Positions 1,095-2,396 of a DNA stretch of 9,418 bases are shown here, in pieces (position 1 is the first letter of the stretch; every line of letters starts with the position of its first letter). The notes below the pieces were generated by a model. It was given only the letters and a program-made list of their open reading frames with translations. It made no database searches and was not told the origin of the DNA. This DNA comes from a virus (Duplodnaviria > Heunggongvirae > Uroviricota > Caudoviricetes): positions 1 through 9,418 of IMG/VR virus record IMGVR_UViG_2778261154_000013; one strand, 5' to 3'. The position numbers were made by a program, and so were the translations under genes.

Positions 1095-1136
1095 ATTAAA
1101 CACAATTTGTTTTCTTATGTCAACACGTAATGTGTT
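1095..1136 (-). promoter_or_regulatory. pL-like leftward early promoter with overlapping operator sites
   Basis: On the minus strand: -35 TTGACA (revcomp of 1118-1123), 17-nt spacer, -10 TTTAAT (revcomp of 1095-1100). Operator-like inverted repeat AACACgtaatGTGTT at 1122-1136 overlaps the -35; a degenerate copy AACACaatttGTTTT at 1099-1113 overlaps the spacer. Confidence 0.5.
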
Positions 1137-1639: not shown

Positions 1640-1735
1640 TGCATCCTTGTATCACGAATCGTGATTTACATAAAACACAAAACAGCTTGACTATATAACA
1701 CAAGGTGTGTTTAAAATTGTCATCGGAGGTTTTCA
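1640..1735. promoter_or_regulatory. Divergent immunity operator/promoter region (pRM-like leftward, pR-like rightward)
   Basis: Perfect palindrome ATCACGAaTCGTGAT at 1651-1665. Second palindrome AACACAaggTGTGTT at 1697-1711, of the same AACAC..GTGTT family as the oL sites. Putative rightward -35 TTGACT at 1687-1692 and -10-like TAAAAT at 1712-1717 (spacer about 19 nt, so the alignment is uncertain). SD GGAGG at 1725-1729. Confidence 0.6.
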
Positions 1736-1960: not shown

Positions 1961-1973
1961 GAGCGGTTGATTC

Positions 1974-2396
1974 ATGAAAATCAGGCATGAGCACATCGAA
2001 TCAGTGTTGTTAGCCCTGGCAGCCGAAAAAGGGCAGGCGTGGGTCGCTAACGCAATTACTGAAGAATATCTGCGCCAGGGGGGCGGCGAATTGCCCCTTG
2101 TACCAGGCAAGGACTGGAACAATCAGCAGAATATCTATCACCGTTGGTTGAAAGGTGAAACGAAAGCGCAAAGGGAAAAAATTCAGAAGCTGATCCCAGC
2201 AATTCTGGCAATCCTTCCGCGCGAGCTGCGTCACCGACTCTGCATCTTCGATACCCTGGAACGCCGTGCATTACTGGCGGCGCAGGAAGCGTTGAGTACG
2301 GCAATTGATGCGCATGATGATGCAGTCCAGGCCGTTTACCGGAAAGCGCATTTCAGCGGCGGCGGGTCTTCCGACGATTCTGTCATTGTTCATTAA
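1974..2396 (+). CDS. ydaT: CII-like regulator, Rac YdaT-like protein
   Basis: 140 aa, same length and position (immediately after the Cro-like gene) as Rac YdaT; the sequence matches my recollection of YdaT (MKI.HEHIESVL.ALAAEKGQAWVANAITEEYLRQGGGELPLVPG...). SD AGGAG upstream. Confidence 0.7.
   Translation: MKIRHEHIESVLLALAAEKGQAWVANAITEEYLRQGGGELPLVPGKDWNNQQNIYHRWLKGETKAQREKIQKLIPAILAILPRELRHRLCIFDTLERRALLAAQEALSTAIDAHDDAVQAVYRKAHFSGGGSSDDSVIVH

Follow-up and report, generated by a model that had tools for sequence, protein, structure and literature searches.

The DNA analysed here, referred to as the window (9,418 nt), derives from a Rac-like lambdoid prophage of E. coli and covers its early region. 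Positions 1000-2450 are 99.6% identical to strain VL40, and ~150 of 5,426 complete E. coli genomes, O157:H7, O145 and O111 strains among them, carry the immunity region. A repressor gene and a cro-like gene diverge from a common intergenic region, and ydaT, which lies downstream of the cro-like gene, is followed by ydaU/O-like and DnaC-like replication genes (Table 1). Both divergent genes encode proteins with a Pfam HTH_3 domain (repressor, E = 4.6e-13; Cro, E = 5.1e-10) and near-identical recognition helices (Cro IQSRLANYE versus repressor TQSRIGNYE). Structures in the PDB that matched the repressor were the 434, P22 c2 and lambda repressors, while its sequence homologues bore generic names only and a Pfam search gave no match to a self-cleaving (RecA-cleavable) protease domain. 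The Cro-like protein of the window matched only general HTH families in Pfam.

Table 1 Genes, operators and promoters around the repressor gene of the window. Promoters are predictions, and operator names give the proposed lambda equivalents.
Feature	Position	Strand	Description
OL1 and OL2 (left operator pair)	1099-1136		OL1 1099-1113 (AACACaatttGTTTT); OL2 1122-1136 (AACACgtaatGTGTT); overlaps the PL-like promoter
PL-like promoter	-35 1123-1118; -10 1100-1095	minus	Predicted; TTGACA, 17 nt, TTTAAT; near-consensus; overlaps OL1/OL2
Intrinsic terminator	1171-1189	minus	Downstream of the repressor gene
Repressor gene	1220-1639	minus	139 aa; N-terminal HTH_3, recognition helix WTQSRIGNYE, C-terminal helical domain
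Extended -10 of PRM-like promoter	1646-1654	minus	Predicted, read from sequence; TG-A-TACAAG
OR3-equivalent operator	1651-1665		ATCAC-GAATC-GTGAT; centre 1658; arms invariant in 27 homologous regions
OR2-equivalent operator	1674-1688		AACAC-AAAAC-AGCTT; centre 1681, -42 from predicted PRM start
PR-like promoter	1687-1715	plus	Predicted, read from sequence; -35 TTGACT 1687-1692, 17-nt spacer, -10 TTTAAA 1710-1715
OR1-equivalent operator	1697-1711		AACAC-AAGGT-GTGTT; between the PR -35 and -10
Cro-like gene	1736-1960	plus	HTH_3, recognition helix WIQSRLANYE; divergent from the repressor gene
YdaT box	1967-1984		TTGATTcatgaaAATCAg; spans the ydaT start codon (1974); 1 mismatch to the CP-933P consensus
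ydaT	1974-2396	plus	CII-like regulator; downstream of the cro-like gene

The window's cro has a run of five cytosines at 1927-1931 where 62 related loci have six, shifting the C-terminal reading frame, and the resulting 74-aa product, which ends at 1960, compares with 80 aa for the form that overlaps the ydaT start; its length was unmatched in 79 related loci. The frameshift could be due to decay of a cryptic prophage or to a homopolymer sequencing error, and given the altered C-terminus the switch may be impaired in this copy. Rfam reported a Trp leader on the minus strand at 1164-1250 with a sub-threshold score (25.8 bits versus a gathering score of 41). The match includes the repressor terminator, whose hairpin most likely produced it by chance.

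Within the intergenic region, ATCACGAaTCGTGAT forms a perfect palindrome at 1651-1665, with 7-bp arms around one central base, and lies 12-26 nt upstream of the A of the repressor ATG (1639 on the minus strand; ORF 1220-1639). This is where an earlier note, made from the sequence alone, had placed it, and our check of the sequence bore out both its symmetry and its distance from the repressor start. The 15-mer ATCACGAATCGTGAT is present as a single copy in the window. Perfect symmetry by itself is weak evidence: ~0.65 perfect 7-1-7 palindromes are expected by chance per 9.4-kb window, and ~0.04 within the 96-bp intergenic region. When arms of at least 7 bp and spacers of 0-5 bp were allowed, the window contained 10 perfect palindromes compared to 3.8 expected. 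Because symmetry is insufficient alone, the significance of the palindrome at 1651-1665 rests on its position, register and conservation.

Comparison with the neighboring repeats placed the palindrome within a single family of operators. The palindrome and the AACAC..GTGTT sites share a 15-bp NNCAC-N5-GTGNN format with a CAC/GTG core, and the palindrome differs from AACAC-N5-GTGTT by one base in each half-site (T for A at position 2 in both halves). The combined pattern AWCAC-N5-GTGWT, with at most 1 mismatch, had only four matches in the window (1099, 1122, 1651 and 1697), all of which flank the repressor gene. On the right-hand side, the site centres (1658, 1681 and 1704) are separated by exactly 23 bp and 23 bp; the middle site has a conserved left half, and its right half is degenerate and runs into the -35 of PR. 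Three right operators of one dyad-symmetric family thus lie between the divergent repressor and cro genes. The spacing recurs on the left, where OL1 and OL2 are also 23 bp apart and a 46-nt segment (1096-1141) is an inverted copy of 1669-1714 with 74% complementarity. We looked for a third left operator and for an ATCAC-type site around 1095-1136 and found neither. The earlier note had described the palindrome as unrelated to the AACAC..GTGTT family and had counted two classes of operator in the region. Neither description fits the common 5-N5-5 layout, CAC/GTG core and 23-bp register, which instead indicate one operator family with a variant member, as is the case for OR3 in lambda. No paper in the literature that could be searched contained these operator sequences.

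The repressor-proximal half of the palindrome also contributes to a predicted promoter. On the minus strand, GTG-A-TACAAG is followed by 6 nt and then by the ATG at 1639, with the palindrome supplying the TG of a predicted extended -10 (TGaTACAAG) whose hexamer, TACAAG, is without the usual final T. The same arrangement (GTGnTAnnnn, a gap of 6-7 nt, ATG) recurs in each of the 10 parsable pairings of a Cro helix with a repressor helix. The suggestion that the palindrome sits over a pRM-like promoter, likewise made in the earlier note, gains support in that the predicted extended -10 layout is kept in every related immunity group examined. From the spacing of this element, repressor transcription is predicted to begin at the A of the start codon and to yield a leaderless mRNA. 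A consensus promoter scan reported nothing on the minus strand near 1651-1665 and none of PRM, PR or PL; its rules for hexamers account for the failure at PR, whose second hexamer has no A at position 2, and at PL. As the scanner missed these promoters, we inferred them from motifs conserved across homologues, including the TTGAC of the PR -35, which is kept in related loci. With the PRM start, itself predicted from motifs, set at 1639, the centres of the palindrome (1658), OR2 (1681) and OR1 (1704) fall at -19, -42 and -65, respectively; relative to the start predicted for PR, the palindrome is centred at about -64. Operator centres at -19, -42 and -65 would reproduce the geometry of lambda PRM.

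To evaluate conservation, we compared 27 distinct homologues of the intergenic region, all from IMG/VR prophages. None of them varied at 1651-1657 or 1660-1665, so that the arms ATCACG and CGTGAT are constant, while variation was found at 1658-1659, in the 11 nt before the site and in the 7 nt after it. Absence of the palindrome from homologous regions had been named in the earlier note as one result that would refute its reading; the arms of the palindrome were invariant in all 27. OR1 displays the same pattern as OR3, in which 6-7 invariant positions are followed by 2-3 variable and 6 invariant ones. On a broader scale, three such sites are present across the 10 Cro/repressor helix combinations, which come from several enterobacterial genera, and the first operator begins 11-12 nt from the repressor ATG, with one outlier at 5 nt that is due to a different start-codon call. 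A separate scan with the repressor family, using one genome per species, gave 15 loci; those from L169 onward have a different N-terminal domain or no recognisable cro and are uninformative for the OR3 site. In a single case, that of Raoultella sp. BIGb0138 (L167), the repressor has the helix WTQSRIGNYE and AACAC-like sites lie upstream, and this locus has neither a recognisable cro nor an ATCAC or ACCAC site adjoining the repressor start.

Loci in which the two regulators have diverged separately are informative as to which of them the palindrome follows. All 79 loci encoding the same Cro (at least 89% identity) have ATCACG..GTGA(T/A) at the OR3 position, around centres of GAATC, GATTC, GATGC, GATGT or GCTAC. 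Among these, phage pPE4 and its relatives (type B) encode a Cro identical to that of the window over residues 1-65, together with a repressor that is only ~60% identical and carries a different recognition helix (WSGSSRIANYE versus WTQSRIGNYE). Their OL1, OL2, OR1 and OR2 all read CTCAC..GTGAG, and yet TATCACGA...GTGA is retained beside the repressor start, with diverged sequence on either side. The reciprocal situation is found in loci L219-L221, where the repressor is 58% identical overall with an unchanged helix (WTQSRIGNYE) and the OR1 and OL half-sites remain AACAC..GTGTT. Here the Cro helix is of the Arg type (WRQSRLSNYE), and the site at the OR3 position has become ACCACgcagcGTGTT (ACCAC..GTGTT).

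The same tendency was observed in 19 hand-listed contexts. Cro helices containing Arg were accompanied by C at position 2 of the proximal half-site in 10 of 12 contexts, compared to T in 6 of 7 and C in none for helices with Ile, Ser or Asn (Fisher p = 7e-4, for 19 contexts that are phylogenetically non-independent). The exceptions are L223/L224 and L232, which combine an Arg-type Cro with ATCAC. Because of these loci, a fixed correspondence of Ile to T and of Arg to C was dropped as a rule and only the association is retained. Part of the association could also be inheritance, as few lineages are compared and cro lies within ~100 bp of the site. The variable Cro residue aligns with Thr27 of the 434 repressor, immediately before the recognition helix, and in 434 structures the region around residues 27/28 contacts the outer operator bases. 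One proposal of the earlier note, that the repressor and Cro have different specificities, is thus partly sustained: the site follows Cro type in both reciprocal comparisons, and L223/L224 and L232 run against it. With regard to the organization of these loci, their immunity regions form a 2 x 2 mosaic (pPE4 (L001), L029, L074 and others compared with the window), in which two cro alleles that are 89% identical and share a recognition helix are each paired with both AACAC-type and CTCAC-type repressors and operators.

Taken with the register and conservation, these comparisons make the palindrome a likely equivalent of OR3, which would be the third site, nearest the repressor gene, in a tripartite right operator of the lambda style, located on PRM, preferred by Cro and weak for the repressor. 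A dimer on the palindrome would cover the spacer and extended -10 of the maintenance promoter, and would thereby block RNA polymerase and stop synthesis of the repressor. The order of binding that we infer is one in which the repressor fills OR1 and OR2 first, with OR2 at the position (-42) from which lambda CI activates PRM, and occupies the palindrome weakly and at high concentration, resulting in negative autoregulation. The Cro-like protein would prefer the palindrome and would shut off PRM as the lytic programme begins. This reading makes a testable prediction, namely that one base per half-site (T versus A at position 2) separates the preference of Cro from that of the repressor.

Among the other explanations, the one that survives best is an operator for the repressor alone, kept deliberately weak for negative autoregulation and holding no special attraction for Cro, which we regard as unlikely. 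It is consistent with several observations: the palindrome is one base off the repressor consensus in each half-site, as expected for a weak site; the type B version, ATCAC..GTGAA, fits the NTCAC half-site family of the type B repressor itself; and the correlation between Cro and operator base has exceptions. Nonetheless, a weakened site need not be a perfect palindrome with an identical substitution in both halves, and the site behaves as though it were tied to Cro, in that ATCACG..GTGA stays when repressor specificity changes and becomes ACCAC when only the Cro type changes. In addition, the Cro-like protein of CP-933P occupies the PRM side first (PMC8630535).

A target for a third regulator, either the CII-like YdaT or a host transcription factor, as had been raised in the earlier note, is very unlikely. 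The YdaT of Rac also protects DNA within the racR-ydaS intergenic region of K-12 (PMC11879457), and the segment 1661-1678 (GTGATTtacataAAACAC), which overlaps the right arm, matches the YdaT box at 9 of 12 positions. However, matches with 3 mismatches occur at chance level (10 found versus 6.8 expected), and this one is made of the arms of OR3 and OR2 and is missing from type B regions, whose ydaT is closely related. The palindrome itself did not match the box, which in CP-933P reads TTGATT-N6-AATCAA (PMC9986795). A good YdaT box is found elsewhere, at 1967-1984, and is nearly identical to the footprinted box of K-12 Rac, ATGATTcatgaaAATCAA, which lies across the ydaT ATG (PMC11879457); its presence excludes the CII-like regulator from the palindrome. 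A host factor would not account for the way in which the site changes together with the phage's own regulators among prophages of Citrobacter, Dryocola, Pectobacterium and Enterobacter. The palindrome also does not fit the consensus sequences of LexA (CTGT-N8-ACAG), CRP or Fur sites.

It is equally improbable that the palindrome binds no protein and that its left arm is conserved as part of the promoter, with symmetry arising by chance. The chance frequency of such palindromes in the window (~0.65) and the overlap of the proximal arm with the predicted extended -10 would both allow this, and the promoter does place some constraint of its own on the proximal half-site, which contains the TG and the first T of the -10. 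However, CGTGAT, the distal arm, plays no part in the promoter and yet is just as invariant while the two central bases and the flanks vary, and the 23-bp register and common CAC/GTG core would be left unexplained. Least probable of all is an RNA hairpin that controls repressor translation within an extended leftward mRNA, such as an establishment promoter might produce: although minus-strand RNA can fold into a hairpin that includes the arms, the fold is no better than that of shuffled sequences (z = -1.4; 18 of 200 shuffles as good), 1651-1665 has no Rfam match, the centres change among homologues without keeping a stem beyond the operator half-sites, and the predicted PRM transcript begins downstream of the palindrome.

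An OR3-type operator would place this region alongside characterized switches, the closest in layout being the right operator of lambda. There too, the repressor and cro genes diverge from three dyad-symmetric sites of one family, spaced at about two turns of the helix. The repressor-proximal site over PRM, the middle site near -42 and the leaderless repressor mRNA of lambda are matched by predictions in the present case. Like the palindrome, OR3 of lambda deviates from the best sequence for its repressor, and at both sites Cro is expected first. The differences are that the sites described here are 15 bp (5-N5-5) rather than 17 bp and unrelated in sequence; that both proteins are of the HTH_3 type (434/P22-like) with near-identical helices, whereas the fold of lambda Cro differs from that of CI; and that Pfam identifies no RecA-cleavable protease domain in the repressor and only two left operators were found.

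In terms of gene content, the PaaR2/YdaS/YdaT system of CP-933P from E. coli O157:H7 is similar, having the same order of repressor, cro-like gene, ydaT and replication genes (PMC8630535, PMC9986795) and an intergenic region of 97 bp compared to 96 bp (PMC8630535). It likewise has several evenly spaced operators as well as PL operators upstream of the repressor operon, and a YdaT box at the ydaS/ydaT junction (PMC9986795). For paaR2, 5' RACE and N-terminal sequencing identified a leaderless PRM transcript that starts at the start codon, and a low concentration of the Cro-like YdaS suffices to protect PRM, whereas protection of PR requires a higher one (PMC8630535). The operators themselves differ, being 18-bp repeats in four copies with the consensus GTTTAGTAA, and this half-site consensus does not occur within 1640-1735; immunity specificity therefore differs between the two. 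Unlike in CP-933P, the repressor gene is not followed by a toxin-antitoxin pair, and the comparison is one of architecture.

Phage 434 offers a parallel for the proteins. Its repressor and Cro share an HTH fold and have very similar helices, the outer bases of its 14-bp operators (ACAA-N6-TTGT) are conserved while the central bases vary, and the two proteins read the same operators with different preference, as we propose for the window. A PDB search matched the N-terminal domain of the window's repressor to that of 434 (E = 6.5e-4), and the two align helix for helix, but half-site sequence and spacing differ from those of 434. The K-12 Rac prophage (RacR/YdaS/YdaT; PMC5700373, PMC11879457) has the same backbone, with ~97% DNA identity in ydaT and ydaU and a YdaT box across the ydaT start codon (PMC11879457). 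In contrast to this similarity, the DNA match begins at the ydaT junction, leaving the repressor gene, cro and the intergenic region unaligned, and the RacR operators are unrelated to those described here. The operator sequence is common to none of lambda, CP-933P, 434 or Rac, and by analogy the palindrome would have an OR3-like role in a switch resembling that of CP-933P.

What emerges is a layout for an uncharacterised but common immunity type: there are three operators on the right and two on the left, PRM is predicted to be leaderless, and the YdaT box lies apart from the operators. It is largely a textbook arrangement, apart from one possible feature. It is conceivable, though rather doubtful, that cro and the repressor-proximal operator form a specificity module that evolves and recombines apart from the repressor and OR1, OR2 and OL. 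If so, heteroimmune prophages of type A (AACAC sites) and type B (CTCAC sites) would have one Cro and one Cro site in common, and the Cro of one phage could shut the maintenance promoter of a resident prophage of the other immunity type, with anti-immunity or induction in trans between immunity groups as a consequence. Prophages with different repressors could then disturb each other's maintenance, and such interference, if real, would bear on the stability of multiple lambdoid prophages in Shiga-toxin-producing strains. The family would also represent a natural series in which the pre-helix residue (Ile, Arg or Gly-Arg) can be set against operator position 2 (T, C and C, respectively). One IMG/VR contig (2574180332_000004; 58,484 bp) contains a type A and a type B' immunity region (L009 and L073) ~47 kb apart. 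This pair could be due to tandem prophages or to an assembly join, and bears on possible cross-talk between types.

Other perfect palindromes in the window are found away from the immunity region. A 14-bp palindrome, CCCTTCCGGAAGGG, is located at 2942-2955 within the ydaU/O-like replication gene and might be part of an origin-like region. Two more (8318-8332 and 8356-8373) are situated near the end of a small Hok/Gef-like ORF (8132-8344), where they possibly reflect the fold of a hok mRNA or a terminator. At L002, which is the homologous locus, the annotation reads Hok/Gef family protein.
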